From Actinomycetota bacterium (GTDB lineage: Bacteria > Actinomycetota > Thermoleophilia > Solirubrobacterales > 70-9), in contig JAPVSJ010000109.1 in the NCBI GenBank assembly GCA_047519745.1, forward strand, positions 6,326 to 70,325: 64,000 nucleotides of DNA. Direction: 5' to 3'. Of the stretch, positions 6,848-33,868 are shown piece after piece; positions within the stretch are counted from its first letter, which is position 1; each line of letters begins with the position of its first letter. The notes below the pieces were generated by a model that was given only the letters and a program-made list of their open reading frames with translations, did not search any database and was not told where the DNA came from. Position numbers and translations under genes: made by a program.

Positions 6848-6879
6848 GTGGCCTGGTGGGGAAGCCTTCGCTAGAGAGC

Positions 6880-7794
6880 GTGGACCTGAAGCTCAACCGG
6901 GCGAAGGATCACTTCTACGCTCTCACGGAAGACATCAAGAAGTTCCAGTCCGATCCAGACAGCTACAGCCTCGCGCTTGAGCGACAGCCGAACCGTGGTG
7001 GCATCTGCAAAGTCGCCGATGTGCATCTTCCCCCAGTCGAGTTGGGGATTCTCATCGGGGAGTGCGTGCATCAATACAGGTCCGCCCTTGACCATCTTCT
7101 GTTTCAACTCGTCCTCGCCAATAGCCGCGGACGCTTGGCCCCCAGAATCGAGAGACGAGCTGAATTCCCGATCTTCAGCAGCGGTCCCAAGTTCAGAGGG
7201 AAGAGAAAGGGAGTGCCGTCGCCAGGTAGCGGACGGGCCAAGATCCAGGACATCGCGCCAGCGGCACAGGCAGCTATCGAGCGGCTCCAGCCGTATCACC
7301 GCCGGAAGAACCCCGGAACGCGCAGTCTTGGGCAACTTCAAGAACTCTCGAACATCGACAAGCACCGGCTCCTCCACGTCACCTATTCGGCGTTTAGGGG
7401 CTCTACTTTCGACTTCGAGACGCGGAACGTTGCGGCGATCGATGGCTTCTACTTCAAGGCCGGGCCATTCAAACGAAATGCAACTATCGCCGCATGGCAG
7501 GCCATTCCTGCTGACCCCCGCTTTGGCGTGGAGGTGCAGATGAAAGCAGAGATCCTGACCGACATAACCTTCGGCAAGGCCAGCCCCGCTAGGTCTGCTC
7601 GGGGGCAGTCGGTAGTGAAGACGCTTTACGACGTCGGCGCTTTCATCGCGTCCGACGTGCTGCCCCCCTTGTGTGGATTGCTCGGCCTCTCCAGCGAGTT
7701 CAAGCCGGGCAAACTGATCGACATGGAGACTGTTCCAGTCGAGGATCGAGACGCCATGTCTGAGAGCGTCCGAGTCGCGAATCTGAGCATCTGA
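6880..7794 (+). CDS. hypothetical protein with an Rx4H (HEPN-like) motif; start uncertain (GTG 6856 or 6880)
   Basis: Lower-GC ORF. The upstream part of the track ORF (from 6505) overlaps the transposase gene and is rejected. Motifs: ECVHQYRSALDHLLFQL (R-x4-H) and LSNIDKHRLLH. Confidence 0.6.
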   Translation: MDLKLNRAKDHFYALTEDIKKFQSDPDSYSLALERQPNRGGICKVADVHLPPVELGILIGECVHQYRSALDHLLFQLVLANSRGRLAPRIERRAEFPIFSSGPKFRGKRKGVPSPGSGRAKIQDIAPAAQAAIERLQPYHRRKNPGTRSLGQLQELSNIDKHRLLHVTYSAFRGSTFDFETRNVAAIDGFYFKAGPFKRNATIAAWQAIPADPRFGVEVQMKAEILTDITFGKASPARSARGQSVVKTLYDVGAFIASDVLPPLCGLLGLSSEFKPGKLIDMETVPVEDRDAMSESVRVANLSI

Positions 7795-7837
7795 TCCCTG
7801 CTCAGACACGCCCTACCTAGCCCTTCCGAGCCGCTGA

Positions 7838-7874
7838 GCTTCTACAGTGATGGGATATACGTGACGAAAGTCAC
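7838..7874. repeat. right copy of the 37-bp inverted repeat (partner at 4300-4336)
   Basis: gcttctacagtgatgggatatacgtgacgaaagtcac; see the left copy. Confidence 0.85.
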
Positions 7875-7913
7875 AGCCGCCCTGCACACCCGCGTTCGAA
7901 GGTAGGCGATTAC

Positions 7914-15869: not shown

Positions 15870-16975
15870 TTCTGCGACCGCCGCAGCGATTCCATCACCA
15901 GCTCAACCGCATGCGGGGCCGCGGTCCGCCCGGGATCGTCGCTGGGCGGCTGGACATCCGGGTGGAAGGCGACGGCGACCGCCAAGGGGCCGCTGGCCAG
16001 ATCGACCACCGCGAACTGGCCGGCCAGAAAGTCACCGTCCAGGGAGCCTCCCCAGCCCGCCTTGTAAGCAGGGTTCAGCCCGGCGAAGGCCTCTCCCGCG
16101 CCCCAGTCGAGCGGGGCCGTCAGTTCGCCCGGCGCAACCTCGCGACTCACCGCTTTGGGAAGGCGCATCTCGGCGAGGACTCGATTCGAAATCGCCTTTC
16201 CGTAGACCCCGGCGGCAAGCGCCCGGGCGAAGCGAACCGCGTCGCCGATTCGCCATTCCGAGGTGCCAAGCAGCACTCCCGGCGCGAGCGGGTCGGCGAT
16301 TTCATGCTGGCTTTCCAGGTATTCGAGGCAGCTCGATTCGGGGGGCTCGACTTCCTCGCTGACCTTGGCCCGGCCCCCGGCGGCACGCAGCACTTCCGCA
16401 ACCGCCCGCCGAGCCCCCGCCGGACCAGCCCCAGTCGCCTGCTGAAGTTCGAGCACCACGCGGCGCTGCCGACAGTTCTCCGAACGGGTGATCGCCCCTT
16501 CCAGCGCGCTCTGCACCTCCGGCGTCAGGGTGTTCCCGGGCACCCCACCCCAACCCTCGGCGCGCAGGAGGCCGACCATGACGACGGCCTTGCTCATGCT
16601 CCACATCCGCATCCAACGCTTGCCGCCGTCTGGCCGGGAGGTAACGATCACGGGGTCTCGCCAGCTGGTGAACGTCGCCGCCGCCTCGACCGAGCCCCCA
16701 AGCGCGGCGGCCTGCTTGACGCCGCGCCTCAGCGCCGCAGCGATCTCAGGGCGATCGCTCTCCGGCGCTTTCCTGAGCGAGGTCGTTACGGCAGCGCCGA
16801 GCACAACGAGCCTCATGTCATGGCTCTGGCTGGCCGCGATCAGGCACATGACCACGGCGATGAGCGCGGTCATGGAGGCAGCGGCGATGCGCCGCTGCCT
16901 CCTGAGCCGCGTCGAGGCTCGGCGCGACCTCGTCAACAGGTCGTCCCAAGCAGCTCGTCGTAGCGCGGTTTCCAA
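15866..16975 (-). CDS. membrane-anchored serine hydrolase / class A beta-lactamase-fold protein
   Basis: N-terminal TM helix MTALIAVVMCLIAA, SxxK (WSMSKAVVMVGLL), SxN (RSENC) and KxG (YKAGWGG) motifs in the canonical order. The start may be a later in-frame codon. Confidence 0.65.
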   Translation of the reverse strand: METALRRAAWDDLLTRSRRASTRLRRQRRIAAASMTALIAVVMCLIAASQSHDMRLVVLGAAVTTSLRKAPESDRPEIAAALRRGVKQAAALGGSVEAAATFTSWRDPVIVTSRPDGGKRWMRMWSMSKAVVMVGLLRAEGWGGVPGNTLTPEVQSALEGAITRSENCRQRRVVLELQQATGAGPAGARRAVAEVLRAAGGRAKVSEEVEPPESSCLEYLESQHEIADPLAPGVLLGTSEWRIGDAVRFARALAAGVYGKAISNRVLAEMRLPKAVSREVAPGELTAPLDWGAGEAFAGLNPAYKAGWGGSLDGDFLAGQFAVVDLASGPLAVAVAFHPDVQPPSDDPGRTAAPHAVELVMESLRRSQK

Positions 16976-19200
16976 GCGCGTTCGCGCGCCCTGGTGGTCG
17001 AGTAGCCGGGGTCATAGCGCCAGATGCCACGTTCGTATTTGGCCCAGGTGAGCCCTGCCCATTCGGTGCACGACGCGCTCGGGTCATACCAGCGCATGCC
17101 CCGCACGTCGACCCGCGCAACGCCATTCGCTTCGAGCTTGTCGATCGCGACCCTCATGCCGTGCGGTTCGAGGTAGGGGGTGAGCGTCGCCTGCGCTCGG
17201 CGCCATTTTCCGAAGCCCCCTTCGCGCTGCGCCTGTCGTTGCTTGCGCTTGCTCAACAAGCGCCAGGCGCGGTTGAATTCGCTGTTGACGACCGCACGGT
17301 GGTAGCCGTAGAGGACCTGGCGTATCTGGCGGGCCATCTGTTCCTTGGAGATGAGCGGGAAGCCCCTGTGGTCGACGGTCGCTTCCGCTTCGGGTTCCGT
17401 TTCGGGCGCTTCTTCTTCGACGAATGATTCCGCCGCCTGTTCGGCTTCCGAGAAGGACGTGGCCGACCCCGAGGCGGAGGCCCCGCCCGCGGAGGTGGAC
17501 CGCGCCAATTGTGCGATCCCGACCGCGACGACGGCCAAGACGGCGATGACGGCCAACGAGGACGCGCCGACTCGCCATGCCCAGCCACCCTGGCCGATCG
17601 GTGTGAAGGTCGCCGCATTGGCGCCAGCCAGGCGCTGGGCGGTCCGTGACGGCTCGAAGGGACGCTGGGCAGGGACGACGCCGCGCCGCGAGAGCAACCA
17701 GAGCAGCGGCTCAGTCGCGCCCCTAGGCTCGAACGCGCTCTTGTCGTCCGCCTCCGGGACACGGCCGAGAGCGCTGCAGGCGAACCACCTGACGTTCCCG
17801 AATTCACCCTCGACGGCACGCACGAAGTTGCCGGCGCCATTGGCCTCGAGCCAGGCACGCGGCGCCTTCTCACCCGCGCTCGCGCGCAGGTTCTCGATCT
17901 CGGCGTCGATGCCGAAGGCGTCGGTCTTGCCGATCGTCACTGCGATCGGCACGTCCTTGGGATCGACGCCACCCTCGACCAGCGCGGCGAGCATCCGCTC
18001 CAGGACACGCATCGGCTCCTCTGGCGAGGGGCGGACCGCTTCGCGGGACTCGCTCAGCTCGCTCGCGTGTTCCTCGGCCACGCGGGGAATCGAGAGTGGG
18101 TCGACGAGGAGAACCAGGCCCGAGGGAACCTCGAGGAAGCGCAGGTTCCTGACCTGGTCGGAGGCCTGGTAGTTCTCGCCGGCGACGTCGTAGGCGTAGA
18201 GCACGCGGGAGCGGTCGTCACCCTGAACCTCGGTGACGAGTGCCGGGTTGCCCGAGATCTGCGTCTTCTGTGGCAACCTGCCCTGGCGCAGACCGCCAAC
18301 AACCTCGCTATAGGCGGTGCTGCTCTCGTCGAGGACGTCGACGGCGAGACGCTTTTCCGCCGCCATCTTCTCGAACTCGAGCATCGCGGCCGCGAGATAG
18401 GTGGTCTTGCCCGCGCTCGGCCCCGCGACCAGGGCGATGCGCAGCGTCTCGGCGAAGCCGATCAGGCCCGACATCGGGTGGCCCGAAGGACAGCGCTGCG
18501 GTACCCGCTGGCGGCCGCCGAGGACGGTCGTCGGCAGGGCGACCAACTCGCAGGAGCATTCTCGCCGGAATATTCCCCAGCGCCCGGGGACGAGATTGCG
18601 ATGCTCGGCGCTGCAGTTGGGACAGACGTATACGGGCAGCGGGAAGCGTTCGTGGTCCTGGGGGCACTCGTAGGCGGTCCGGCGCAGGCGGCGACGGACC
18701 GCCTCGGCCGCGCGCAGGATCCAGACCATCAACCAGGCGCCGGCGATCAGGATCCCGGCGACGAGCATCACCGGCGCCACGACGAGCAGACCAAGCCCAG
18801 CGCCGACGAACGGCGCGATGTAGCCCCCCGCGAGGACACCCCAGGCAAGCGGCGTCGTCACCCCGTCGTTGTATTTGTCGGCAAAGCGGGTGCAGGTCGC
18901 GCGGAAGGTGAGCATCTCGGCCCACGCTTTTTTCAGGGCCGCTTCAAGATCGCTCCTCAGCTGGCCGAGGATGTAGAGCTGGAAGGCCGGCTCCGGCGGC
19001 AGCGGCTGGCGCCGGGATTTACCGCGCGAGCTCACTGAGCCGCCGAGGTCAGAGGCAAAGGCGAGGCTGCCCTGGCCGAGGCCGATCAGGGCCCCGCCCG
19101 CTGCCCCCAGGGCAAAGACCGCGATTGCGGCCGCGATGAGAATCATCACCACGATGGCTCCAATGGCCAGCGCCAGCATGCCTCCGATCAGGTCGTCCAT
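16933..19200 (-). CDS. membrane-embedded zinc-ribbon P-loop GTPase with a C-terminal extracytoplasmic domain (paralogue of 24301-25473)
   Basis: Hydrophobic segments near residues 8-48, 118-163 and 541-566. Cys clusters ECPQDH..CPNC and CSCE..RCPSGH. G1 VAGPSAGKTT, G3 YDVAGE, LVLLVDP, G4 GKTD. Confidence 0.75.
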   Translation of the reverse strand: MDDLIGGMLALAIGAIVVMILIAAAIAVFALGAAGGALIGLGQGSLAFASDLGGSVSSRGKSRRQPLPPEPAFQLYILGQLRSDLEAALKKAWAEMLTFRATCTRFADKYNDGVTTPLAWGVLAGGYIAPFVGAGLGLLVVAPVMLVAGILIAGAWLMVWILRAAEAVRRRLRRTAYECPQDHERFPLPVYVCPNCSAEHRNLVPGRWGIFRRECSCELVALPTTVLGGRQRVPQRCPSGHPMSGLIGFAETLRIALVAGPSAGKTTYLAAAMLEFEKMAAEKRLAVDVLDESSTAYSEVVGGLRQGRLPQKTQISGNPALVTEVQGDDRSRVLYAYDVAGENYQASDQVRNLRFLEVPSGLVLLVDPLSIPRVAEEHASELSESREAVRPSPEEPMRVLERMLAALVEGGVDPKDVPIAVTIGKTDAFGIDAEIENLRASAGEKAPRAWLEANGAGNFVRAVEGEFGNVRWFACSALGRVPEADDKSAFEPRGATEPLLWLLSRRGVVPAQRPFEPSRTAQRLAGANAATFTPIGQGGWAWRVGASSLAVIAVLAVVAVGIAQLARSTSAGGASASGSATSFSEAEQAAESFVEEEAPETEPEAEATVDHRGFPLISKEQMARQIRQVLYGYHRAVVNSEFNRAWRLLSKRKQRQAQREGGFGKWRRAQATLTPYLEPHGMRVAIDKLEANGVARVDVRGMRWYDPSASCTEWAGLTWAKYERGIWRYDPGYSTTRARERAWKPRYDELLGTTC

Positions 19201-19886
19201 CTGTACCTCGCTTCTTTCGTGGGTTTTCTCTCGATGTCGAAGGCCGGGAAGAAGCGCGGCACGACCAGCGAGCCGATGCCGATCGCCACCGTCGCGGCGA
19301 TCGCCAGCCGCGCCTCCGGGCTGCCGAGGTCATGCAGGCTGCCGCCGAGCGCGGTGTAGACGAAGCAGCGGGGCGCGAAGCCAACCGCCGTGCCGATCGC
19401 GATACGCGAGAGGGGGATCGCGGTGAGGCCGCAGGCATAGCTGGTGTAGGTGAATGGGAGGCCGGGGACGAGCCGGGCGAAGATGACGCTGCGCAGGGGG
19501 CGGGCCTCCAGCCAGCGGCCGAGACGGGCGACCCGATCGCCGAGTACCGCGGCCGCGCCGGGGGAGCTGACACCGCGAACGATCAGCACGGCCAGCAACG
19601 CCCCGACGGTCAACCCGGCCAGTGCGACCGGGAAGCCGAGCGCGAGGCCGAGCACGTAACCGGCCGCGGCGGCGAGCAGGCCGGCGGAGACCAGCGCCGG
19701 CGTCAGCACCGCCACCGCAGCGAAGGTCAGGGGCAGCGCCGCCCCGCTTTCGTCGGCGAAGTCGGCCACGCTGTGCGCGTTCAGCGCCAGCCCGATCAGG
19801 ACGCCGACGGCGACCACCGTGACGACGACGAAGAGGATGAAGAGCCGCGTTCGCTCGGCCCGTGGCGAACGGCGCTCGGCGTTCAT
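19188..19886 (-). CDS. TVP38/TMEM64 (DedA superfamily, SNARE-associated) membrane protein
   Basis: ARLVPGLPFTYTSYACGLTAIPLSRIAIGTAVGFAPRCFVYTALG is the family core motif. 4-nt overlap upstream and 13-nt overlap downstream. Confidence 0.8.
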   Translation of the reverse strand: MNAERRSPRAERTRLFILFVVVTVVAVGVLIGLALNAHSVADFADESGAALPLTFAAVAVLTPALVSAGLLAAAAGYVLGLALGFPVALAGLTVGALLAVLIVRGVSSPGAAAVLGDRVARLGRWLEARPLRSVIFARLVPGLPFTYTSYACGLTAIPLSRIAIGTAVGFAPRCFVYTALGGSLHDLGSPEARLAIAATVAIGIGSLVVPRFFPAFDIERKPTKEARYRWTT

Positions 19887-21892
19887 CGCTTCACCAACCC
19901 TTCGCCGGCCAGCTGGCGGGCGATGCCGCGAAAGCCACCGGCCAGGTCGGCGAGGTCGAGGATCTCGCCGTCGACGGTCGCGAGCCGCTCGAGGAAGGCG
20001 AGGTTGGCCCCCTCGACCCCGCGGGCGACGATGTCGACCTCTTCCTCGACGAGGCGCTCGCGGAGGCGCATGGTCGCAGCGGTGTCGTTGGGCTGACCGT
20101 CGGTGAGCAGGACCACGACGCGACGACCGGACTCTCCGGCCAGGCCCTTGCCGGCCACCTCCAGGCCGGCGGCCATGTCAGTGCTGCCGCTGGCGCTCAG
20201 GCCTTTTGCCGCTCGCCGCAGCCGCTTCGGCGAGGCGCCGATCGCGGCCTCGTTCTTGGCGCTGGTCGAGAAGGAGACGAGCGCAATCCGCTCCCCAAGG
20301 CCGGCCTCCTCGAGCACGTCGATGAAGCCGCGCAGCGCGACCTTCGCCTCCTCCAGCTTGCCGCCCGACATGCTGCTGCTGACGTCGACCACGAGCGCGA
20401 CGGCGAGCCCTTCCGCGCCAGCGTGACTGCCGGGCTCCTCGTCGGTCCAGGCGAGGTCCCGTTCGTCGCGGTCGATCACGGGATCGCCGATGCGCTGGCC
20501 CTCGACGCTGGCCGACACCTGGACGATGCCGTCCCGGTCGTACTCGTAGGCAACGTCGACGCTGAGCGTGCCGCTTCGCGTCGCCTCGATCCCCTCGAAC
20601 CGCCAGCAGCCGAGCGGCTGGTTGTCGAGCGGACGTTCGGCCTCCCCCTGCAGCATGTGAACCTCGAGCCTGCCGCCCCCGCCAGCCGGAACGGCGAGGC
20701 TGTGGGGCTTGCTCGCGCGGGCCGGGATCGGCGCGTTGCGGGCGATCATCACCTGGTTGACGTAGCGATCGCCGGCTGCCGAGACGACGACGAAGCCGAG
20801 GGCATGGGCGGTGACGTCGCGGATTCGCGTCAGGGCGCCGCCGCCGTCCGAGGCGGACCCGCTCGCCGGTTCCGCGGCTGCGATCGCCGCGCCGCGGGCC
20901 ACGGCCTCGTCGGGGTCGACGCCGGCCGAAGGCCGCGTCCCGGTAACCCGCTCCAACACATCCGCACATGGCGGCATGCGGGTCGAGCCGCCGACGAGCA
21001 GCACCTCGTCGATCCGGTCGGCGTCACCCACGTCCTCGAGCACGCGAGCGACGATTCCCTCAGTGCGGTCGAAGAGGTGGGCAGTGCGCTCGAAGAACCG
21101 TTGCCGGGTGACCTCGACCCGGCGCAGACCCGCGGCGGTGGCGACGTTGACCGAGCATCGCTCCAACCGCGAGAGCGCGTGCTTGGCCTCGCGAGCGCGC
21201 TCTTCCAGCTCGGCCAGCAGCGCGGCGTCGTCGCGCGGATCGGCCTCCCCGTCGAGCGCTTCGACAAGCAGCTCCGCCATTGCGTCGTCCCAGTCCTTGC
21301 CGCCGAGCCGGTGATCGCCGAGCGTCGCCAGCACCTCGGAGCCGCTTTCCCGATGACGCACGACGGACACGTCGAAGGTGCCGCCGCCGAGGTCGTAGAC
21401 GAGCACGGTCGCGGTGCCCCCGATGCCGTGGCCGAAGCAAGCGGCGGTCGGCTCGTGGATCAGCCCCAGCGGCTCGATGCCGGCGAGGTTCGCGGCCTCG
21501 AGCGTCGCGCGGCGGGCGTCGTCGCCGAAGTAGGCAGGAATGGTCAGGATCGCGCGGGCAACCGGCTCGCCAAAGGTGGTGGCGGCATCGGCGACGAGGG
21601 CACGCAGGACCTCGGCGGAGAGATCCTCGGGTCGCCAGCGCCGCCCCGCCGCGTCGACCTCCCACTCGGTGCCCATCGCCCGCTTGAAGAAGGCAAAGCA
21701 CGATTCGGGGTCCAGCGGCGCCGAGCGCGCGGCCTCCTCGCCGACGAGGACACCGGCCTCCTGCACGGCGACCACCGAGCGAAGCCGGGGACCGCCATCG
21801 CGGGTGGTGGCGAAGTCCACCCGGCCGGTCCCGTCGACCATCGCGAGCATCGAGATCGTCGTGCCCAGGTCGATGCCCACCGGGGCGTCCAT
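19883..21892 (-). CDS. Hsp70-family ATPase fused to a C-terminal von Willebrand factor A domain
   Basis: GIDLGTT, TIPAYFGDDARRATLEAANLAGIEPLGLIHEPTAA, VLVYDLGGGTFDVSVV and VLLVGGSTRMP (actin-fold NBD). A beta-rich middle region. vWA with MIDAS DVSSSMSG ... VVLLTDGQPND. Confidence 0.85.
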   Translation of the reverse strand: MDAPVGIDLGTTISMLAMVDGTGRVDFATTRDGGPRLRSVVAVQEAGVLVGEEAARSAPLDPESCFAFFKRAMGTEWEVDAAGRRWRPEDLSAEVLRALVADAATTFGEPVARAILTIPAYFGDDARRATLEAANLAGIEPLGLIHEPTAACFGHGIGGTATVLVYDLGGGTFDVSVVRHRESGSEVLATLGDHRLGGKDWDDAMAELLVEALDGEADPRDDAALLAELEERAREAKHALSRLERCSVNVATAAGLRRVEVTRQRFFERTAHLFDRTEGIVARVLEDVGDADRIDEVLLVGGSTRMPPCADVLERVTGTRPSAGVDPDEAVARGAAIAAAEPASGSASDGGGALTRIRDVTAHALGFVVVSAAGDRYVNQVMIARNAPIPARASKPHSLAVPAGGGGRLEVHMLQGEAERPLDNQPLGCWRFEGIEATRSGTLSVDVAYEYDRDGIVQVSASVEGQRIGDPVIDRDERDLAWTDEEPGSHAGAEGLAVALVVDVSSSMSGGKLEEAKVALRGFIDVLEEAGLGERIALVSFSTSAKNEAAIGASPKRLRRAAKGLSASGSTDMAAGLEVAGKGLAGESGRRVVVLLTDGQPNDTAATMRLRERLVEEEVDIVARGVEGANLAFLERLATVDGEILDLADLAGGFRGIARQLAGEGLVKR

Positions 21893-24304
21893 CTAGCGCT
21901 CCTCCCCGCGGCGGAACACACCTCGTACCGCCCGCGAAACCGCGCGGCGAGGAGGGTGATCCTCGAGCCAGCGCTCCCAGGCCCGGCCGCGGCGCTCGCC
22001 CAGAATCACGCCGACCTCGTCCAGCTCGGCGAGTGGAAGGTCGCGGGTCGCCCGTGGGAGCGCGACCTCGAGCAACGGCTCGCGACAGCTCTTCGGCGCC
22101 TGCCAGAGAACAAACACGTCGGCGACGAGCTTCGAGGGGTCGAGGCTCTTCGCGATGCGGCGCGCCAGCGCGTCACCCAGCTCCAGGGGCCAGTCCCGAC
22201 CCATGCCACGCAGCAGGACCTCGATCCCCTTCGCGTAGTCGTCCTCGTCCAAGGACTGGATGGCCACCCGAGCCGCGAGGTCGCTCAATTCCCCATCGCG
22301 GGCGGGAGACAGCGACTCTCCTCCTCGCAGCAGGCGATCCGCCGCCACGGCCCAATCGCGAAAGGCCTGGCGTTCCGGCGCCGCCTCGAAGAGCAGGCTC
22401 CAGGCGAGGTACTCGGTGTCGCCGCGCACCGCGCCCGGGCCGTTGCGCAAGACGCCGAACAGCCGCCTCGCCTCCTCGCCCTGCCGAAACGACAGCTCCG
22501 CGAGGCAGTCGAGGGCCCGTTCGTAGTCGAGGTGAGGAGCCTCGCGCCCAGCGGCATCCCAGGCAGTGAGCAGCTCGGCGTTCTCCTCCGCCCCCACCGG
22601 GCCGTCGTCGCCGTAGAGGCCGCGGATCATCGCCTCGTGGCCACGGGTCTCCGCCCGACCCGCGAGGGCCGCCACGGCGGCGCCACGATCGGCGCCGGCG
22701 AAGTCCGCTCGCAGCAACTCCCACGCCGCGATCGCCTCGAAATCGCCCGCCTCGGACGCGTTCGCGCGCACCGCCTCCCGTGCCAGCGGCTGGTCCGCCG
22801 CTCGCCTGAGGAGCTCTAGGCCTTGACCGGAGCCCGCCGCCTCGGCCAGCTTCAGCGCGACTCCTTCGATGACCCGCGCGTTTCCCGACGCGCCGATCAC
22901 CGCGTATGACGCCTGCACGGCCGGGTCGGCGAAGGAGCGAGCGATCGGCTCGACCAGCTCCTTGTCGAGGGCGGTGTTGCAGCCAACCAGGCCCAGCCGC
23001 AGGCCCGCCGTGAGGTAGGGGCCAAAACGCTCGCCCCCGTCCGCCCCCGAGAGCAGACCAAGCCACTTGACGAGCACCGCGGCCGAGGGCGCCGTCGGGC
23101 TGGCCGAGTCCACTTCCGGCAGCGGCGGGGCATCCGGGCCGAGAGACGGGAGAAGCCGCTCGAGCGCGACGTCGACGAGAGCCGTCGCGTCAGGGTCCTC
23201 GCTTCCCCTTGCCGCCGCGAAGAGCTGGGCCCACTCCTCAGACTCCCCCTCCACGCTTCCGCCCTCCGGCAGCTCCGCCGCCATCTCGGCGAGCAGACCA
23301 GCGCCAGTCGTCGCGAGGCAACCGCGCAGAGCCGCGATCGCGTGCGGCAACTCGGCGGGCAGAACAAGCTCGAGCCTGCGCGCCGCCACCGCCAGCTCGG
23401 CGCCCGCGCTGGCGAGGTCGAGACCAGCGGGCACGTCGCGAATCGCGGCCGACACGGCCTCCGCACCGTCACCCGCCAGCGCCGCCAGGGCCCTGCCGTA
23501 AAGCGAGAGCTCAGAGACCGGAGGGGGCGTGGCGGCGTCGACGACGGTGACCGCGCTGCCCAGCTCGTAGGGCGGGAAATCCGTGTCGCAGGCCGGCGTC
23601 GTGACGCACATGCGCACCGACTCGGCGACCCGCGGCCTACCCTCGAAAGTGGCGAAGGTCAGCGCCGTAGCCCGGTCGGGTGGCAGCGTGAAGCTGGCCC
23701 AGGCGACCCAGGCCGCCGCGAGCTCCGCCTCGGCCTCGACGATCACGACCCGCGGGCCGCCGAGGACGGCGCTGAGGGCGGCGTCCGAGACGGCCCCGAG
23801 CGCCGGGGCACCGCGGGAAAGAAGTCGGCCGAGCACCTGATCGAGGTCCACCGGCCCGGGCTCGACCCCCTCGAGAACCGGGAGATCGGTCCGCGTCGAC
23901 TCCGCAGTGGACCAGTGGGGCGCCTCCCAGAGCTCGATCGGCAAGAGGCCACCGAACGGGTCCGGTTCCTCGCCGGCGATGATGTGGGAGAAGTAGTTGC
24001 CGAAGCGCCCGCTGTCGGGCTCCCCTTCCGCGCCGCGAAACTCGCGCCCGACGTAGACGGTCCGCGAGACGACCGGGCCAATGCCCTCCACCGGCAGGTA
24101 GCGCAGGTCGACCGGTAGCGCCGCGATCTCCTCGGGATTGGGTTCCGCCGGCGCATCGGGCGGCGGGCGGTAGCCGGAGTGGTCGGCGGCTAGCCGAGTC
24201 AGCTGCTCAGGCGCGAGCCCGCCGCTCGCGGCGTTGAACTGAAAGCCGGCATGGCCCGAAAGGCCGTTGCGGCAGGAGGTGTGGAACGCCTGGCGGCAGC
24301 TCAT
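21893..24304 (-). CDS. large helical protein with a GAP1-like (GTPase-associated protein) N-terminus
   Basis: N-terminus MSCRQAFHTSCRNGLSGHAGFQFNAASGGL... The rest is Ala/Leu-rich and helical. Flanked by the GTPase gene (4-nt overlap) and the Hsp70-vWA gene (abutting). The family name is from memory, not from a search. Confidence 0.55.
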   Translation of the reverse strand: MSCRQAFHTSCRNGLSGHAGFQFNAASGGLAPEQLTRLAADHSGYRPPPDAPAEPNPEEIAALPVDLRYLPVEGIGPVVSRTVYVGREFRGAEGEPDSGRFGNYFSHIIAGEEPDPFGGLLPIELWEAPHWSTAESTRTDLPVLEGVEPGPVDLDQVLGRLLSRGAPALGAVSDAALSAVLGGPRVVIVEAEAELAAAWVAWASFTLPPDRATALTFATFEGRPRVAESVRMCVTTPACDTDFPPYELGSAVTVVDAATPPPVSELSLYGRALAALAGDGAEAVSAAIRDVPAGLDLASAGAELAVAARRLELVLPAELPHAIAALRGCLATTGAGLLAEMAAELPEGGSVEGESEEWAQLFAAARGSEDPDATALVDVALERLLPSLGPDAPPLPEVDSASPTAPSAAVLVKWLGLLSGADGGERFGPYLTAGLRLGLVGCNTALDKELVEPIARSFADPAVQASYAVIGASGNARVIEGVALKLAEAAGSGQGLELLRRAADQPLAREAVRANASEAGDFEAIAAWELLRADFAGADRGAAVAALAGRAETRGHEAMIRGLYGDDGPVGAEENAELLTAWDAAGREAPHLDYERALDCLAELSFRQGEEARRLFGVLRNGPGAVRGDTEYLAWSLLFEAAPERQAFRDWAVAADRLLRGGESLSPARDGELSDLAARVAIQSLDEDDYAKGIEVLLRGMGRDWPLELGDALARRIAKSLDPSKLVADVFVLWQAPKSCREPLLEVALPRATRDLPLAELDEVGVILGERRGRAWERWLEDHPPRRAVSRAVRGVFRRGEER

Positions 24305-25473
24305 CGGCTCGGCAACGCTCCCCAGCTGTCGAGCATCCAGAGAACCGGGTCCTCCACCCGATGCGGAGCGACCCCGTTGGGCAAGCGCCCCTCGACTGGC
24401 GGTTCGCCGAGCGCGGAGACGCCGAAGTAGGCCATCGTCTCGAACTCCTGCTTGACGAAGGAGTCGAGTCGTTCTCCGAGCCAGCCGGCCAGGTCACTGC
24501 GGACCGCGGCGCTGACGCTGTCCGCCACTTGGCGGTCGAAGCGGCCGTCGTGAGCGGGGAGGGAGAAGACCGGGTGCCCCTCGGGGAGGAGCGGGCGCAC
24601 GGCGTCGAACTTGGAGACGGTCAGCGCCAGGGGGACGTCGATCGGCTTGTTGGCGGGGATGCCACGCGCCTCGCGGATCAAGCCGGTGACCCGGCCCAGC
24701 ATCGTGTAGACGTCGACCGCGTCTTCGGGCAGATCGACCGAGCCGCCGAGCTCATCGCGCACCGCGGCGATCTGCAGGGGGTCGACGAGCAGGACCAGGC
24801 CATGCGACTGGGTGATGTAGCGGGCCTCGCGTTCGAGTACGTCGAGGGACTGCAGGTCCTCGCCGGCGCTGTCGAAGAAGACAAGATTGCTGTGCGAGCC
24901 CCCGCCAGCGCCGACGCTGAGGCGGGCTACGAGCGGGACGCGGACGTCGGCGCCAATTTGACGTGCGGATTGCGTCGGAGCGAGTACGACCCCTTCGCGG
25001 TAGAGCCTCGGCATCAGCTCCCTGTCGACCCGGTTCCGGGTCGCGTCGTCGAGCAGCATCAGCGAGCCGTCGAAGCGAGGGCCGACGCGGTGTTCGAGCT
25101 CGTGCAGGGCGACCGCGATGAAGTTGCTCTTGCCGGCCGCCTTGGTCCCGATCAAGCCCATCGAGCGGCTCGGCGCTTCGGCGAAGCGCTGCGGCAGGTC
25201 GGAGTGGCAGTTGGGGCAGACCGGGCGCGCGGCCGCACCGCACTCGCAGCGCACCGGATGACCCTTCTTCACCTCGAAGGAGCGGCCGAGGCGGCCCTGT
25301 CGTCGCAGCACCCGGCCGGCAAGCGGAGCATCGGTGCCTCGAAAGCGCCCCTGCGCCTCGTCCGGTTCGCGGGGGCAGCGTTGCTCATCGCTGCCGGTGC
25401 ACCGGAACGCCGCGATCTTGGTCGACCAGGGCTGGAAGCAATACGGGCACAGCACTGATCGTGGCGCCGCCAT
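24301..25473 (-). CDS. soluble zinc-ribbon P-loop GTPase (paralogue of 16933-19200)
   Basis: CPYC...CP and CECG...CPNC. G1 GTKAAGKS, G3 FDSAGE, LVLLVDP, G4 SKFD. C-terminal FGVSALG...PVLWML is shared with the 755-aa paralogue. Confidence 0.8.
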   Translation of the reverse strand: MAAPRSVLCPYCFQPWSTKIAAFRCTGSDEQRCPREPDEAQGRFRGTDAPLAGRVLRRQGRLGRSFEVKKGHPVRCECGAAARPVCPNCHSDLPQRFAEAPSRSMGLIGTKAAGKSNFIAVALHELEHRVGPRFDGSLMLLDDATRNRVDRELMPRLYREGVVLAPTQSARQIGADVRVPLVARLSVGAGGGSHSNLVFFDSAGEDLQSLDVLEREARYITQSHGLVLLVDPLQIAAVRDELGGSVDLPEDAVDVYTMLGRVTGLIREARGIPANKPIDVPLALTVSKFDAVRPLLPEGHPVFSLPAHDGRFDRQVADSVSAAVRSDLAGWLGERLDSFVKQEFETMAYFGVSALGEPPVEGRLPNGVAPHRVEDPVLWMLDSWGALPSR

Positions 25474-25475
25474 GG

Positions 25476-28400
25476 TCAGTCGATCAGGAGCTGGTCGGCC
25501 ATTGGGTCGAAGAGGACGAAGCCGCTCGCCGCGCTCGCCGAGTCGAGGAAGAGCCGCACCGCGAGTGGCCGCGAGAGCCCACGCAGCTCGAGGCTCGAGT
25601 GGCGCGGGCCGTCGCCGCCGAGCCGCGCCAGCACCGCCCCGTCCGCCGCGCTGCGGGGCAGGATCTCCCCCTCGCGCCCGACCAGCACCAGCTCGGGCAG
25701 CCCCCCGTTGGCGGGCTCGGAGACCTCGACCTCGAGGCGCTTCTGCAACATCCCGGCAAGCCGCACCGAGTAGCGCAACTCGGTCTTGTCCTCGGTCCTC
25801 AGAGTCGCTCGGGTGCCCTTGCCGCCGCTGCTGCCATAGGCAACGTCAGCGCCCAGACGAGTCGCCGGGAAGACCGCGACGAACAGCGAGCGCTGGTCAC
25901 CGAGGTCGATCGAGCAGCCGCCGCGATCACGGTACTCCCCCAGCCTGTAGTCGATGGCGTGGGCACTCGCGTCCTCGGGCCCGGCTGGTTGGCGGTCATG
26001 GCGCCAAACGATCCGGGCGAGGGTGATGCCGGCGGGCCAGGTCCAGGTGACCTGAGCCTGGCGACCGTTGGCGACGGCGCGCACGTTCGAGATCTCGGGC
26101 AAGGCCACGTGGCGAACCGCCGCGCCGGCAACCGCGGTCGTGCCAGCGACAGTGACCGCCTGATAGAAGCAGGGGCCCGTTGGCGGTTCGGGGTCGACGG
26201 CGGCCGATCCACTTACCTCAAGCGCCTGGCCCAGCCCGGACAGCTCGGCAAGCTCGAGCTCAGCCCCTGGCTTCAGCTCCGGATCCTCAGCGCACCTGAA
26301 GATCGAGAGGGTGCCGTTCTCCGGCGGCTCGAAGCCGAGAGCGACGCCAGTCGACCGCGCGAGCACGATCAGCTCACCGAGCGGCTTGGGTCGTTCAACC
26401 GGCTGGGCGAACGCCGTCAGGCCCGGGGTTCGGACCGCCTCCCCACCCGGCACCGGGTATTCGACCCGCACGAAATAGGTGTAGCGACGGCCGTTGACGA
26501 CGAAGCGATCGGTGACGCCCGCGGCATCGGGGTCGAGCGTGATCTCGGAACGATCCGACTCGTCGCGGCGGCGGACCTCGACCCGGCCCGTCTCTGCACG
26601 GGCCGTCCAGGACAGGCGCACCTCGCCATCACCCTCGCTGACGGCGAGGTCTCCCACCTCGTGCGCCGCGACCGCCGGTGCCGAGGTCGCAATAGTGGAG
26701 CGTGCTCCGCCCCGGACGGCCTCGACTGAGTAACGGACGACCGCCCCAGGTGCGGCCCCGTCGTCCTCGATCTCGAGCCCGTCGGTTTCCCCGACGAGCA
26801 CCCTGCCCTTACCGCGGATGTCCCGGAAGACCACGTAGGCAACGCCTCTGGTCAGCGATGGCGCCCAGCCGATCATCATCGCCGTCCCGCCCGCGACCGC
26901 CTCCACGGCGCTGGGCGGCTCGAGCGGCAGCTTCTCCAGCTCGCGCTCCGCCTCGGCACAATCGGCCGCGAAGTTGAGTGCCTCCAGCAGCAACTGCTCC
27001 CTCGACGCTCCCTGGAGCCCGAGCGCCTTCGCCAGTGCCACCTCGGCTTCACCCACCCGCTCGCGCGAGGCTTCCAGCGCCCCTGCAGGCAGTTCCCCGG
27101 TAGGCCCGGGGAAATCTTTGGCGGCCTTCTCGAGCTCCCCGAGCAGCCGGCGCGCGGCATAGTGGCGACGCTCGCCTCGTGCCTCATCGACTTCCGCCCA
27201 GGCGCGTTTGGCGCCTTCCACGGCTGCCGTAACGCGGCGTGCCGCGGCCTGCAGCTCGGCGTTCGAGCTGCCGAGGATCTGCGTCGCCTCCTCGAGCTCG
27301 GACCGCGCCCGGCCCACCCTCCCCTCGTCGACCAACTCGGGCAGCCGAGAGACGGTGCGGATCGCGGCCGCGTGCCGGTGGAGGTCGGCGCCGCAGGTGG
27401 CGCAACGCGCCGCCGTCGCGTCGCTGCGCTGACCGCAGCCGTTCGGGCACTGGACGAAGAGCGCCGTGGCGCAGCGCTCGCAGCGCTCGTGACCAGCGTC
27501 GCGCGGATGGGGGTGATTGCACAGCGGGCAGGCGACGAAATCGACCGCCGCTCCGGTGCGAAGGCTGGCGCCGTGTTCGCGGGCGAGCTCGGCCACCACG
27601 CGCTGCGCCAGCTCGGTCGTGAGGCCCAGCTCCAGCCCCCCGCGGAGAAGCTGCTCCGCCTCCAGCTCGTCGATCTCGCCATCGTCGGCGACGGCCTTCA
27701 TCGCCCGCAGGTCGAGTGCTTCGCGAACGTCCAGCATCAGCCCGTGCACGTAGGCACGGGGATCGTTATCGAGCAGATGGATCTTGGCCAGTGAGAGCAC
27801 CGACTCCCAGTTCGCCTTGGTATTGCCGTGGGGCCGAACACGGTTTGCCTGAACCTGCTCCGCGTACCGGGCGTCGATCGCAGCTCGGTCAGCGGTGATC
27901 TCCAAGCCAAAGGCGTGGAAGAGGCTGAGGCCGGCCCGAGGTTCGGCAAGGTCACGGGCGAGGTTGGTGAGAGCGCTGGCCACCAGCGCCCGCTGGCCCT
28001 GATCGAGGATCTCCGGCTCAGCGGCGACCGGTGCGGCGTCGAGTTTCGCCTGCACCTCGGGGCCGGCGATTCCGGTGCTGGCGGCCATCCTCTCCAGGCG
28101 CGCGCGCTGGGTCGGGTCGAGTCCGCCCGCCGAGCGGACCGTCTGCGCCAACAGCTCGTCCCACTCCTTCACGGCCCGCGCCGACGCCTCGGCGCGCTCG
28201 TGCATGCGCTGGCGCATCTCGTCCGCAAGCCGCTCCCGCTCGCGGGCATCGCCGAGGGTCAGCTTTGCCTCGGGGTGCTTTTCGACCAGGTTCCTGATCG
28301 CCGCCCCGTACCGGGGGTGCTCTGATTTCTTGTCCCAGTAGCGCTTGACCTCTTCGAGGCGAGCCTCGATTGCCGCTTCGTCGGAATCGTCGACATCAAT

Positions 28401-28493
28401 CAGGTACCGGTCGAACAGGTTCGGCAGCTCAGCCGAATCGATGCACGGGGCGAGCACGTCGCCCAGGTACGACTTTGGGTCGAACGGTCGCAC
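25476..28493 (-). CDS. 1005-aa multidomain protein: two J-domain-like helical modules, a Cys-rich zinc-ribbon cluster, a coiled coil and C-terminal beta-sandwich repeats
   Basis: NLFDRYLIDVDDSDEAAIEARLEEVKRYWDKKSEHPRYG... and SLFHAFGLEITADRAAIDARYAEQVQANRVRPHGN...IHLLDNDPRAYV. CPLCNHPH..CERC..CPNGC..CATC. Repeats such as GEVRLSWTARAETGRVEVRRRD and AQVTWTWPAGITLARIVWRHD. Confidence 0.6.
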   Translation of the reverse strand: MRPFDPKSYLGDVLAPCIDSAELPNLFDRYLIDVDDSDEAAIEARLEEVKRYWDKKSEHPRYGAAIRNLVEKHPEAKLTLGDARERERLADEMRQRMHERAEASARAVKEWDELLAQTVRSAGGLDPTQRARLERMAASTGIAGPEVQAKLDAAPVAAEPEILDQGQRALVASALTNLARDLAEPRAGLSLFHAFGLEITADRAAIDARYAEQVQANRVRPHGNTKANWESVLSLAKIHLLDNDPRAYVHGLMLDVREALDLRAMKAVADDGEIDELEAEQLLRGGLELGLTTELAQRVVAELAREHGASLRTGAAVDFVACPLCNHPHPRDAGHERCERCATALFVQCPNGCGQRSDATAARCATCGADLHRHAAAIRTVSRLPELVDEGRVGRARSELEEATQILGSSNAELQAAARRVTAAVEGAKRAWAEVDEARGERRHYAARRLLGELEKAAKDFPGPTGELPAGALEASRERVGEAEVALAKALGLQGASREQLLLEALNFAADCAEAERELEKLPLEPPSAVEAVAGGTAMMIGWAPSLTRGVAYVVFRDIRGKGRVLVGETDGLEIEDDGAAPGAVVRYSVEAVRGGARSTIATSAPAVAAHEVGDLAVSEGDGEVRLSWTARAETGRVEVRRRDESDRSEITLDPDAAGVTDRFVVNGRRYTYFVRVEYPVPGGEAVRTPGLTAFAQPVERPKPLGELIVLARSTGVALGFEPPENGTLSIFRCAEDPELKPGAELELAELSGLGQALEVSGSAAVDPEPPTGPCFYQAVTVAGTTAVAGAAVRHVALPEISNVRAVANGRQAQVTWTWPAGITLARIVWRHDRQPAGPEDASAHAIDYRLGEYRDRGGCSIDLGDQRSLFVAVFPATRLGADVAYGSSGGKGTRATLRTEDKTELRYSVRLAGMLQKRLEVEVSEPANGGLPELVLVGREGEILPRSAADGAVLARLGGDGPRHSSLELRGLSRPLAVRLFLDSASAASGFVLFDPMADQLLID

Positions 28494-28500
28494 TCGGTCC

Positions 28501-30195
28501 TCAGGTGCGGCTCACCGAGGCGACCCGCTCCGCCGCGGCCGCAACCTTCTCCTGCGACATCACCGCACCCTCGGCTTCGACCTCAAACTCGAGGTTCGAG
28601 CCGCTGCTGTGTGACGCCTTGACCTTCAACACGCCGTTTTCGGCCATCGCGAGGGTCACCTGGATCGGCGCCCCCACCGGGTCGTTCCCGGGCAGCGCGA
28701 TCACCCCATGTCCGATGTTTTCGTTGTGGGCGAGCTCTTCGGAGAGCTCGGAGCCCGACTGTTGCCAGAGCTCGATGCGCACGGTCTGCTGATTGGGAAT
28801 CGTGGTGCCGTACGTCTCCGGGTCCGGATCGCCCGGCAACGGGGTGTTCGGCTTGATCACGTGATCGATCCAGAAGTCCGCGGGATCGGTCGAGCTGGGA
28901 TCGTGGCCGTCACGTAGGAGCTTTACGCCGAAGCCCCGGGAGCAAACGTTCGTCACCTCGGTGTCCTTGATCCGCTGCAAGGTGCTGAGCTCGAGTCCCA
29001 TCTCCTCGGCGACCTTCTTCTCGATCTCGGCGCTCGAGGACGGCACGCCGTCGGATTCCGCCTGCGCGGTCTCTTCGCTCAGCTTCGCCCTCAGCTCCGC
29101 CTGAAAGCCGAGCAGCGCCGCGCCCTTCGCCACCGCCTGGTTCGCGTCCTCCAGCTCCGGCACCCAGCCGGGGAAGGCCTCCGCCAGGCGCTCCGCTACC
29201 GCAGGCATGAAAGACGACCCACCGACCAGGAGAACCCGATCGATCTCGGGAGCACCGAGCTCCTTTGCTTTCTCCACGGTTTCCCGCGTGAACTCGATCG
29301 TCTGGTCGAGCAGCTCGCGGGTCGCCTGCTCGAACTCGTCCCTGGTCAGCTCAACGTTGTCGCGCGCTTCCCCCGAGACCACGATTTGGGTCAGCGAGTC
29401 GCGCAGGCTCAGCCCCCGCTTCGCCTCCTCCGCGGCGAGCCGCAGCTCGGCCGTCGCGATGTCGTCGTCGAGGGGATCGGGGGCCTCGGGGTGCGCTTCG
29501 GAGAATTTCCGCGCCAGCAGGTTGACCACACGTTCGTCCCACTGAGCGCCGCCGAGGCGCGCGTTTCCCCCCGTCGCGACAACGCGGATGTGACTCCCGG
29601 ACTCGACTGGTTCGAGCCGGATCACGGTGACGTCAAAGGTCCCGCCACCGAGGTCGTAGACGAGAACCGTTTCGTCGACATCAGCCCCCTGGGCGAAGCC
29701 GTAGGACATCGCTGCGGCGGTCGGCTCGTTGACCACGTCGACCACATCGAGCCCGGCGATCTTCCCCGCCGCGATCGTCGCCTCGCGCTCGACGATGCCG
29801 AAATAGGCGGGCACCGTGATCACGACTTTCTCGACTTTCTCGCGCGTCTGCAGCTCCGCGTCCTCGCACAGCGCCTTGAGAATGTGAGCGGATACCTCGG
29901 GCGCGCTCCACTCCTCCCCATGTGCCTCGAAGCGCCAGTCGGACTCACCCATGTGACGCTTGACCAGCTCCGACACATTTTCCGGGTCGAGCAGCATCTG
30001 GCGCTTTGCCTCCTTGCCGACCTGGATGTCGTCGGAACCGACGAACATCACGACCGAGGGGGTGACAGGGTCACCGTCGCGGTTGTTGATCACTATCGGC
30101 CGGCCGAACTCGTCAACCCGCGAGATGCACGAGTACGTGGTGCCGAGATCAATGCCCCAAACCGTCGTCGAGTTTTCACCGTTGCCGTTCCCCAT
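28501..30195 (-). CDS. Hsp70-family chaperone (DnaK paralogue, short C-terminus without an obvious helical lid)
   Basis: GIDLGTTYS, VITVPAYFGIVEREATIAAGKIAGLDVVDVVNEPTAAA, LVYDLGGGTFDVTVI and VLLVGGSSFMPAV. 564 aa in total. Confidence 0.9.
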   Translation of the reverse strand: MGNGNGENSTTVWGIDLGTTYSCISRVDEFGRPIVINNRDGDPVTPSVVMFVGSDDIQVGKEAKRQMLLDPENVSELVKRHMGESDWRFEAHGEEWSAPEVSAHILKALCEDAELQTREKVEKVVITVPAYFGIVEREATIAAGKIAGLDVVDVVNEPTAAAMSYGFAQGADVDETVLVYDLGGGTFDVTVIRLEPVESGSHIRVVATGGNARLGGAQWDERVVNLLARKFSEAHPEAPDPLDDDIATAELRLAAEEAKRGLSLRDSLTQIVVSGEARDNVELTRDEFEQATRELLDQTIEFTRETVEKAKELGAPEIDRVLLVGGSSFMPAVAERLAEAFPGWVPELEDANQAVAKGAALLGFQAELRAKLSEETAQAESDGVPSSSAEIEKKVAEEMGLELSTLQRIKDTEVTNVCSRGFGVKLLRDGHDPSSTDPADFWIDHVIKPNTPLPGDPDPETYGTTIPNQQTVRIELWQQSGSELSEELAHNENIGHGVIALPGNDPVGAPIQVTLAMAENGVLKVKASHSSGSNLEFEVEAEGAVMSQEKVAAAAERVASVSRT

Positions 30196-30249
30196 GCGTC
30201 CTCCCCAGGCGTAGTTGGCTAGTTGCGATCAGTTCTTTTTTGACGTGTC

Positions 30250-30882
30250 TTACGTCGCGTCTCGGTATCGGTAGGCACGAACCTCGGCGACCCGAATCAC
30301 GTCACCGGACTCCCATTGGAATCCCCATCTGACGATCTCGACCACGGTCTTGTCGAGCGACTCGTCCGTGGTCGGCTCGGTTCCCGCGGCAGCGTGCAGG
30401 CGTGGATCGAACTCCTCACCATTCCCCGGGGCGTACGCCTCGACGCCGTTGCGGGCCAAGGTGTCGAGCAGGCTCTCCTGCACCACCCGCAGGTCGTCGT
30501 CTCCCTCGCCGGCAACGGCCCGCATGCGCCCCACGTCGTCGTGGAGGCGAATCAGGTCGCGAACCAGGGGCAGTTGCGCATCGCGCAGCTCACCTGCGCG
30601 CAGACTCAGGTTCTCCGCGTGCAGCCGATCGACGAGATCGGACTGACGCGCAAGCAGGCGCTGTGACTCCTCGAGCCGCGCATCGAACCTTGCCACCGCC
30701 TCCCCCAGCTCGGGTGCGCCAGTGGGGGCCACTTCGTCGGCAGCAAGCAGAGTGGACTCAGCTTCCCCTCCCTCCACGCTGCTTGGCTCTGGGGTGACCG
30801 TCTCGTCGCCGCCGGGGTTAGAGCCATCACCGGCGCGTTGCGCCTTGGCCTCCCCAACCGTCTCCTCGAACGACCTTTCCAT
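30250..30882 (-). CDS. GrpE-like nucleotide exchange factor (first gene of the operon)
   Basis: LPLVRDLIRLHDDVGR..., LLDTLARNGVEAYAPGNGEEFDPRLHAA..., VVEIVRWGFQWESGDVIRVAEVRAY follow the GrpE C-terminal pattern. Confidence 0.8.
   Translation of the reverse strand: MERSFEETVGEAKAQRAGDGSNPGGDETVTPEPSSVEGGEAESTLLAADEVAPTGAPELGEAVARFDARLEESQRLLARQSDLVDRLHAENLSLRAGELRDAQLPLVRDLIRLHDDVGRMRAVAGEGDDDLRVVQESLLDTLARNGVEAYAPGNGEEFDPRLHAAAGTEPTTDESLDKTVVEIVRWGFQWESGDVIRVAEVRAYRYRDAT

Positions 30883-31885: not shown

Positions 31886-33868
<1,983 letters not shown>

Follow-up and report, generated by a model that had tools for sequence, protein, structure and literature searches.

A conserved Hsp70 family with a von Willebrand factor A domain in place of the lid, predicted to form the core of a GAP1-N2-type DO-GTPase system

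Introduction

Few molecular machines are as well studied as the Hsp70 proteins, whose helical lid is seen as central to client trapping. The stretch of DNA analyzed here, hereafter the window, comprises 64,000 nucleotides (approximately 70% G+C) of contig JAPVSJ010000109.1 from an actinobacterium of the order Solirubrobacterales and carries, as the sixth gene of a tightly packed minus-strand unit, an Hsp70 fused to a von Willebrand factor A (vWA) domain, hereafter Hsp70-vWA. The original prediction described the product as a complete Hsp70 nucleotide-binding domain (NBD) followed by a β-rich middle region and a vWA domain with an intact metal ion-dependent adhesion site (MIDAS), proposed that this Hsp70 is dedicated to a specific partner rather than acting as a general chaperone, and named a sequencing frameshift joining two separate genes as one way in which it could be wrong. 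Hsp70-vWA is in fact a large catalogued family whose members are annotated as "Hsp70 family protein". The coordinates of the gene, of its domains and of the neighboring operon genes are collected in Table 1.

Domain architecture of Hsp70-vWA

All of the motifs quoted in the original prediction are present in the protein: GIDLGTT at residue 6, EPTAA at 147, DLGGGTFDVSVV at 167, LLVGGSTRMP at 298, DVSSSMSG at 503 and TDGQPN at 597. The Pfam HSP70 profile matches residues 5-468 with an E-value of 6.6e-93 and is covered from positions 2 to 490 of 599, corresponding to the NBD and the β substrate-binding domain without the lid, while residues 4-465 align to residues 4-461 of Geobacillus DnaK in a phmmer comparison against the PDB. 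By alignment, the catalytic residues D8, K70, E147, D167, T172 and D174 correspond to D8, K70, E171, D194, T199 and D201 of DnaK, P119 and R127 of the NBD correspond to the DnaK interdomain residues P143 and R151, and D452 of the β substrate-binding domain appears to correspond to D481 in DnaK. The C-terminal region passes the vWA profiles (Pfam VWA/VWA_2, E approximately 9e-16, residues 498-642) and holds a complete MIDAS, composed of D503-x-S505-x-S507, T571 and D598, the last of these within the predicted TDG motif. Since neither a transmembrane (TM) segment nor a signal-like N-terminus is predicted in Hsp70-vWA, the protein is expected to be cytoplasmic.

A structural model of Hsp70-vWA was generated with AlphaFold2 from 37 family members (mean pLDDT 89.3, pTM 0.74). 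Structurally, the model comprises an actin-fold domain, a β sandwich at residues 365-474, two short helices at 481-490 and a vWA domain of alternating β/α fold at 497-663; together with the DnaK alignment, the strands of the sandwich identify the β-rich middle region as the Hsp70 β substrate-binding domain. No long lid helices are present in the model, and the Pfam HSP70 match likewise ends at profile position 490 of 599. When the Hsp70 part of the model was compared with known structures using FoldSeek, the best superpositions were obtained with ATP-bound, domain-docked DnaK (4jn4, 4b9q and 7krt, with a root-mean-square deviation of approximately 3 Å), and this similarity suggests that the β domain of Hsp70-vWA can dock on the NBD as in ATP-state DnaK.

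Against the NCBIfam models, Hsp70-vWA scores 311.8 bits for DnaK (cut-off 648) and 283 bits for HscA (cut-off 708.55), remaining below all equivalog cut-offs. Combined with the conserved operon described below, these scores lend good support to the proposal of a dedicated rather than a general chaperone.

Conservation of the fusion

A full-length search covering 5.8 billion clustered proteins returned the exact sequence and more than 115 clusters of 660-712-aa proteins, with identities from 86% down to 36%, all of which carry PF00012 together with PF00092/PF13519; the named homologues came from metagenome-assembled genomes (MAGs) of Solirubrobacterales/Solirubrobacteraceae and from one member of the Isosphaeraceae. 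A second search, with the last 318 residues (β domain and vWA) against 1.84 billion representatives of clusters at 50% identity, gave 478 hits at E <= 1e-10, and 71 of the best 150 matches are proteins of 650-780 aa aligned in one stretch across the β and vWA domains, at positions of approximately 360-700. Because more than 190 full-length homologues from independent genome and metagenome assemblies share this architecture, at 26-86% identity, a frameshift or assembly artefact that joined two genes is rejected.

Residue conservation was assessed in an alignment of 194 full-length homologues (median identity to the window protein 44%). All six catalytic residues of the NBD are invariant in at least 188 of these sequences: K70 is retained in 192, E147, D167, T172 and D174 in 193 each, and the glycines at positions 169-171 in every one, while P119 and R127 are essentially invariant. 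The MIDAS is constrained to a similar degree, with D503 present in all 194 homologues, S505 in 191, and S507 and D598 in 192 each. This near-invariance of both sets of residues indicates that the ATPase and the MIDAS are both under purifying selection. The MIDAS threonine T571 (nucleotides 20180-20182) is kept in 118 homologues and replaced by glycine in a subclade of 46, within motifs such as GxGGGN or GYGN; the DxSxS motif and the distal aspartate stay invariant in these 46 members despite the replacement, which may alter metal or ligand coordination. Moreover, the family has invariant residues of its own, namely H363 and Y451 in the β domain and the connector residue W482, the last of these near-invariant (164/194).

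Organization of the operon

The genes of the unit are separated by gaps of 0-7 nt or overlap by 4-43 nt, the sole exception being a 54-nt gap after the GrpE gene, and no minus-strand terminator-like sites were found inside the operon in a promoter and terminator scan.

Table 1. Coordinates of the operon genes and of the Hsp70-vWA domains in the window.
Feature	Coordinates	Strand	Basis
GrpE-like nucleotide exchange factor, 210 aa, first operon gene	30250..30882	-	Pfam GrpE, E 5.2e-14
Second Hsp70 paralogue, 564 aa	28501..30195	-	Pfam HSP70, E 2.7e-89
J-like/zinc-ribbon/FNIII protein, 1005 aa	25476..28493	-	Profile search, AlphaFold2, FoldSeek
Soluble DO-GTPase with N-terminal zinc ribbons, 390 aa	24301..25473	-	Pfam DO-GTPase2, E 5e-4, 20.1 bits, below cut-off
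GAP1 protein (GAP1-N2 and GAP1-M), 803 aa	21893..24304	-	PF20013, E 2.8e-30; PF20014, E 2.7e-12
Hsp70-vWA fusion gene, 669 aa	19883..21892	-	Single ATG-initiated open reading frame
Hsp70 NBD, residues 1-345	20858..21892	-	Alignment to DnaK
Hsp70 β substrate-binding domain, residues 359-475, no α-helical lid after it	20468..20818	-	Pfam extent, AlphaFold2 strands, FoldSeek
vWA domain, residues 497-663	19904..20404	-	Pfam VWA/VWA_2, AlphaFold2 alternating β/α fold
VTT/DedA-family membrane protein, 232 aa	19188..19886	-	Pfam VTT_dom, E 3.2e-18
Membrane DO-GTPase, 755 aa	16933..19200	-	Pfam DO-GTPase2 (PF19993), E 6e-10, 39.6 bits, cut-off 27
Membrane-anchored protein of unknown fold, 369 aa	15866..16975	-	Possible further operon gene

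The GrpE-like protein has orthologues in the same position at related loci (L001, L009, L010, L013, L034 and L039). The second Hsp70 has an intact NBD, a long linker and a divergent β substrate-binding domain, and it too lacks a lid; alignment to PDB structures places its NBD at residues 12-362, with a weak β-domain match at 445-551, and this NBD shares 42% identity with its counterpart in Hsp70-vWA. The 1005-aa protein combines two J-like domains that lack the HPD motif, zinc ribbons (CxxC pairs at 322, 338 and 364), a helical region and tandem β-sandwich repeats resembling fibronectin type III (FNIII) domains. A profile of nine orthologues of this protein matches more than 25 J-domain PDB chains over region 175-244 (E 1.5e-3 to 0.1) and one J-domain structure over region 17-82 (E 0.05). 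Its AlphaFold2 model (pLDDT 83.4) shows a helical block followed by all-β sandwich repeats at 528-1005, which FoldSeek matches to fibronectin FN7-10 tandems with an E-value of 2.4e-12; no Pfam FN3 domain was detected in the window's protein.

The operon encodes two TRAFAC DO-GTPases, and in each of them a Walker A motif is accompanied by a Walker B motif with a terminal glutamate. The 390-aa enzyme (GTKAAGKS and DSAGE, with CxxC at 9 and 86) falls below the DO-GTPase2 cut-off, its orthologues do match this family, and it shares 26-28% identity with the GTPase domain of the 755-aa protein. The latter (GPSAGKT and DVAGE) begins with N-terminal TM helices, continues with a zinc ribbon and the GTPase domain, and closes with another TM helix near the C-terminus and an extracytoplasmic domain. 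A TM scan placed its TM segments at 1-44, 121-168 and 540-570; a PDB search with its C-terminal domain returned no match, and orthologues are present in L002, L005, L009, L010 and L013. The GAP1 gene lies directly downstream of the 390-aa GTPase gene, scores 105.6 bits for PF20013 and 47.2 bits for PF20014 (cut-off 24), and ends with a stop codon that abuts the start codon of Hsp70-vWA. On the other side, the VTT/DedA gene overlaps the Hsp70-vWA stop codon by 4 nt and has counterparts solely in the closest loci (L005, L010 and L011).

The possible further gene downstream, for the 369-aa protein, has a counterpart of 65% identity at the same position in L005 and L010, and its product has no Pfam or PDB match; an SxxK serine-hydrolase motif suspected in this protein is unsupported. 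Its open reading frame (ORF) forms an overlapping junction with that of a 208-aa membrane-anchored protein (15243-15869, minus strand) with a proline-rich N-terminus and two hydrophobic segments, which was not found in any related locus.

The operon is flanked by genes for an MFS transporter and a MarR regulator on one side and for an ion channel and an acetyl-CoA synthetase on the other, and these flanking genes differ between related genomes. The G+C content at third codon positions (GC3) of the operon genes (16933-30882) is 0.84-0.90, compared with 0.94-0.97 for the flanking housekeeping genes. Given this lower GC3 and the differing flanks, the operon fits a horizontally acquired mobile cassette.

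Gene neighborhoods in other genomes

The original prediction had also proposed looking for the same fusion elsewhere and recording its neighbors. Across approximately 15 contexts compared, the same partner genes occur at every full-length Hsp70-vWA locus with enough flanking sequence (L001, L002, L005, L008-L013, L034 and L039). These include Solirubrobacterales MAGs (L001/L007, L005, L008, L009 and L010), an "Actinomycetes" MAG (L011) and a metagenome contig (L002). In the case of the Selenomonas loci L012 and L013, the order is DO-GTPase, GrpE, Hsp70, Hsp70-vWA, FNIII, DO-GTPase and GAP1-N2, and the same order is found in L034 and L039. The usual companion set of Hsp70-vWA is thus DO-GTPase, GAP1-N2 and FNIII.

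Variant neighborhoods were also identified. The L037/L038 variant encodes a DUF4384 protein, a 1311-aa vWA protein, a TIR_2 protein, a TPR/YfiO-like protein, Hsp70-vWA, three unannotated proteins, an ABC ATPase, FtsX and GAP1-N2, and links the Hsp70-vWA family to a TIR-type effector, as expected of an immune-type system. In L040, genes for a vWA protein and an ABC-FtsX fusion are accompanied by those for Hsp70-vWA and a further Hsp70, and the 17.6 kb covered contain no GTPase gene. L031/L032 retain only the triad of GrpE, a 551-aa Hsp70 and a 683-aa Hsp70-vWA (at about 7378-12052 in L031), located between FtsEX/CtpB-type genes and a shikimate dehydrogenase gene. On the basis of these variants, the constant companions of Hsp70-vWA are a second lidless Hsp70 and, usually, GrpE.

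Two loci show local peculiarities. The only split copy of the fusion is that of L011, a long-read MAG, in which neighboring genes are fragmented too (about 1015-5310 and 8927-10922): the fusion is broken near residue 467-471, leaving a 610-aa protein without vWA (P0087), and the partner Hsp70 and the FNIII protein are also in pieces, probably owing to indel errors or to decay of this copy. In L002, an extra gene inside the system (929-3097) encodes a 722-aa protein that has a guanylate-cyclase domain and shows similarity both to the J-like N-terminal region of the FNIII protein and to the C-terminal region of the partner Hsp70; this composition suggests a nucleotide-signaling variant.

Proposed function and alternative explanations

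The architectural and contextual assignment of Hsp70-vWA can be made with high confidence. It builds on computed features, namely a conserved ATPase, a retained β domain, a conserved MIDAS and synteny with GrpE, the second Hsp70, the J-like/FNIII protein, two DO-GTPases and GAP1-N2, and on this basis Hsp70-vWA is probably a specialized Hsp70, predicted to be catalytically competent, that carries a vWA domain in place of the lid and forms the core of a GAP1-N2-type DO-GTPase system. Its proposed mode of action we put at roughly an even chance: the protein would most likely be a dedicated ATP-driven clamp whose vWA/MIDAS docks a specific partner. Precedents for such a role of the MIDAS are the integrin I domains, the MIDAS of Rea1 and the vWA proteins associated with MoxR ATPases, and in characterized vWA domains a near-invariant MIDAS goes with metal-mediated binding of a ligand carboxylate.

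In the proposed mechanism, the two Hsp70s, GrpE and the J-like/FNIII scaffold would constitute a self-contained chaperone machine, in which the vWA MIDAS would coordinate an acidic residue from a single, specific partner, with GAP1, the FNIII scaffold, the second Hsp70 and an invader protein as candidates. ATP-driven docking and undocking of the β domain could then remodel, assemble or release this partner, with the ATP cycle, reset by the operon's own GrpE, performing conformational work on the partner or on a client bound in the cleft that no lid covers. The Hsp70-vWA step may be gated by the membrane-associated pair of DO-GTPases as they bind and hydrolyze GTP, and the output would most likely be a response with a threshold, elicited at the membrane by invasion or by damage to the envelope.

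Several observations weigh against this interpretation. Within 10 kb upstream of the L031 triad there is neither a DO-GTPase nor a GAP1 gene, so coupling to a GTPase is not obligatory. The HPD motif is absent from all nine orthologues of the J-like/FNIII protein, and the position equivalent to DnaK R167, which we take to be a J-domain contact, varies across the family (E, R, A, K, Q and others), making canonical J-stimulated cycling doubtful. Of the VLLL interdomain linker of DnaK, only the position of I357 stays hydrophobic in Hsp70-vWA. Eight operon proteins were compared with the PADLOC-DB 2.0 models and gave no match at E <= 0.01, outside the operon the window contains housekeeping genes instead of a recognizable defense island, and the operon encodes no recognizable toxic effector. 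The vWA domain alone gives weak, generic vWA matches in the PDB (PTMP1 and BchD) that do not reveal the partner, and every member of the whole system is known from computational prediction alone.

A broader reading, which we hold only tentatively, is that GrpE, the lidless Hsp70 and Hsp70-vWA together form an autonomous two-Hsp70 machine of an unrecognized chaperone class, in which a single acidic-motif client would be selected by the vWA/MIDAS instead of by a hydrophobic cleft under a lid, and which the DO-GTPase/GAP1-N2 clusters and, separately, the ABC/FtsX and TIR clusters would have recruited as an ATP-dependent trigger. The isolated triad of L031, the non-GTPase context of L040 and the constrained ATPase and MIDAS residues leave room for this reading. 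The paralogous Hsp70 would then cooperate on the client, loosely like the Hsp110-Hsp70 or Ssz1-Ssb pairs, and the machine, if real, would give bacterial immunity an Hsp70-based equivalent of MoxR-vWA thresholding.

It is similarly unlikely that the cluster is a housekeeping module for membrane or envelope homeostasis or for a cytoskeleton-like assembly, in which Hsp70-vWA, controlled by the membrane GTPase, would build or repair a complex associated with the envelope. The presence in the operon of a VTT/DedA protein and of a multi-TM DO-GTPase with an extracytoplasmic domain agrees with such a role, as does a window devoid of defense neighbors, PADLOC matches and toxin domains. However, VTT is confined to the closest relatives, the distribution of the system is patchy, its apparently mobile character (different flanks, lower GC3) is at odds with housekeeping, and related neighborhoods hold TIR, HerA/DUF87-like ATPases and other conflict-type genes. 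We consider it a good deal less probable that the vWA domain works in cis on the β domain of its own chain, replacing the lid or serving as an autoinhibitory pseudo-substrate, rather than as an adaptor for a separate partner: the domain does occupy the exact position of the lid, via a short conserved connector bearing the near-invariant W482, and the fusion is fixed across the family, with a split form in one error-prone MAG only, but the near-invariant MIDAS residues indicate metal-mediated binding of a ligand carboxylate. Finally, an ordinary general-purpose DnaK/HscA/HscC-type chaperone with an extra domain, or a sequencing artefact, is very improbable, since the scores, in spite of DnaK being the best sequence and fold match and of the JGI label "molecular chaperone DnaK" on homologues, are under half of the DnaK and HscA equivalog cut-offs, the lid is missing, the operon is dedicated and the breadth of the family refutes an artefact.

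The exchange of the lid for a vWA domain across a large natural family provides a natural experiment in how the allostery of an Hsp70 can be rewired toward a single, specific client. Members of the family are accompanied by an exchange factor of their own, by another lidless Hsp70 and by J-like partners devoid of HPD, and they make up the conserved core of a widespread GTPase-centered cluster, for which a thresholded anti-invader function has been predicted in actinobacteria and firmicutes. Clear mutational handles on the function of this system are provided by K70 and T172 in the ATPase and by D503, S505 and S507 in the MIDAS.

Other features of the window

Several features outside the operon were recorded. 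Four adjacent TetR-family regulator genes (1458-4270), two on each strand, and an IS1595-family (ISXO2-like DDE) transposase gene (5830-6777, minus strand) in a stretch of lower G+C content (0.61-0.63 over 4001-8000) are found near the beginning of the window. At 41925-45583, a Pat-like protein acetyltransferase (GNAT and CoA-ligase-like, 869 aa as listed) is encoded divergently from a histone-deacetylase-family gene; the listed ORFs of the pair overlap by approximately 160 nt, so that one of them probably has its true start codon further downstream. The gene for an AMP-forming acetyl-CoA synthetase (31886-33868) lies 8 kb from this pair, and the three genes may form a lysine-acetylation control module. 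The region 45939-51488 contains the Kdp K+-ATPase genes for KdpA and KdpB, followed by a stand-alone KdpD sensor domain (374 aa) without the histidine-kinase part; a DUF4118-HisKA-HATPase kinase is encoded separately at 55469-56623, approximately 8 kb away, beside a Kup transporter gene. A Fic/DOC-family protein is encoded at 51878-52933 on the plus strand, where the G+C content is locally lower (0.66).

Comparison with known systems

With the canonical Hsp70s DnaK, HscA and HscC, Hsp70-vWA shares the NBD, the catalytic residues, the β substrate-binding domain, a GrpE partner and the superposition on ATP-state DnaK. In contrast to them, it carries a vWA domain instead of the helical lid, has mostly lost the VLLL linker, is variable at the R167-equivalent position and is accompanied by cognate J-like domains without HPD.

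The system also resembles the pairs of MoxR AAA+ ATPases and vWA proteins (RavA-ViaA, CbbQ-CbbO and the "ternary" systems), in that an NTP-driven remodeling ATPase is coupled to a MIDAS-bearing vWA adaptor. Unlike in those pairs, the ATPase is an actin-fold Hsp70 without an AAA+ ring and the vWA domain is fused in cis, so that Hsp70-vWA could be regarded as a single-chain counterpart of the MoxR ATPase and its vWA co-chaperone in the related ternary systems. No AAA+/MoxR domain was detected by Pfam in any operon protein, and the resemblance is therefore one of functional analogy only.

A further point of comparison is the CoCoNuT type IV restriction systems (Bell et al., eLife 2024; PMC11090510), in which Hsp70-like NBD/SBD units, with degenerate ATPase motifs and predicted RNA binding, are fused to the McrB GTPase or to McrC and accompanied by separate TerY-type vWA genes. 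Both bring together an Hsp70-like module, a GTPase and a vWA domain in predicted defense operons, whereas in the window the ATPase is intact, the GTPases are of the DO type and the vWA domain is fused to the Hsp70. Among the PHROGs, the operon proteins match a generic Hsp70 family and, weakly, vWA families, with no match for the other components.

The closest counterpart is the set of GTPase-centric systems described by Kaur, Burroughs, Iyer and Aravind (eLife 2020; PMC7159879), from which the GAP1-N2, GAP1-M and DO-GTPase Pfam families derive. As set out in the text of that study, these systems comprise a zinc-ribbon DO-GTPase, a second DO-GTPase with four N-terminal TM helices and one C-terminal TM helix, GAP1 with an N2-type N-terminal domain and a rapidly evolving FNIII-repeat protein. 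In their HSP70 theme, found in approximately 14% of GAP1-N2 neighborhoods of actinobacteria and firmicutes, HSP70 and GrpE are added, the FNIII protein is fused to DnaJ or TPR and, in a subset, there is a second Hsp70 "sans its peptide-binding domain". The text treats the GTPase-centric systems as functional equivalents or analogues of the MoxR-vWA systems and predicts, from computation only, that they are NTP-thresholded biological-conflict (anti-invader) systems acting near the membrane. The text of the article does not mention an Hsp70-vWA fusion in this theme, and a literature search on Hsp70-vWA or DnaK-vWA fusions returned no relevant paper.

The window carries the hallmarks of this HSP70 theme: GAP1, with both its N2 and M domains, beside a DO-GTPase, a pair of DO-GTPases, an FNIII protein with J-like domains, and Hsp70 with GrpE. 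In contrast to the published text, its two Hsp70s both keep the β domain and are both lidless, and a vWA-bearing Hsp70 occurs in every neighborhood examined here. The surrounding system is thus already known from its computational description by Kaur et al. (2020), and the present analysis adds the observation of an Hsp70 with a vWA domain in the place of the lid as a conserved core component of the GAP1-N2/HSP70-theme system.

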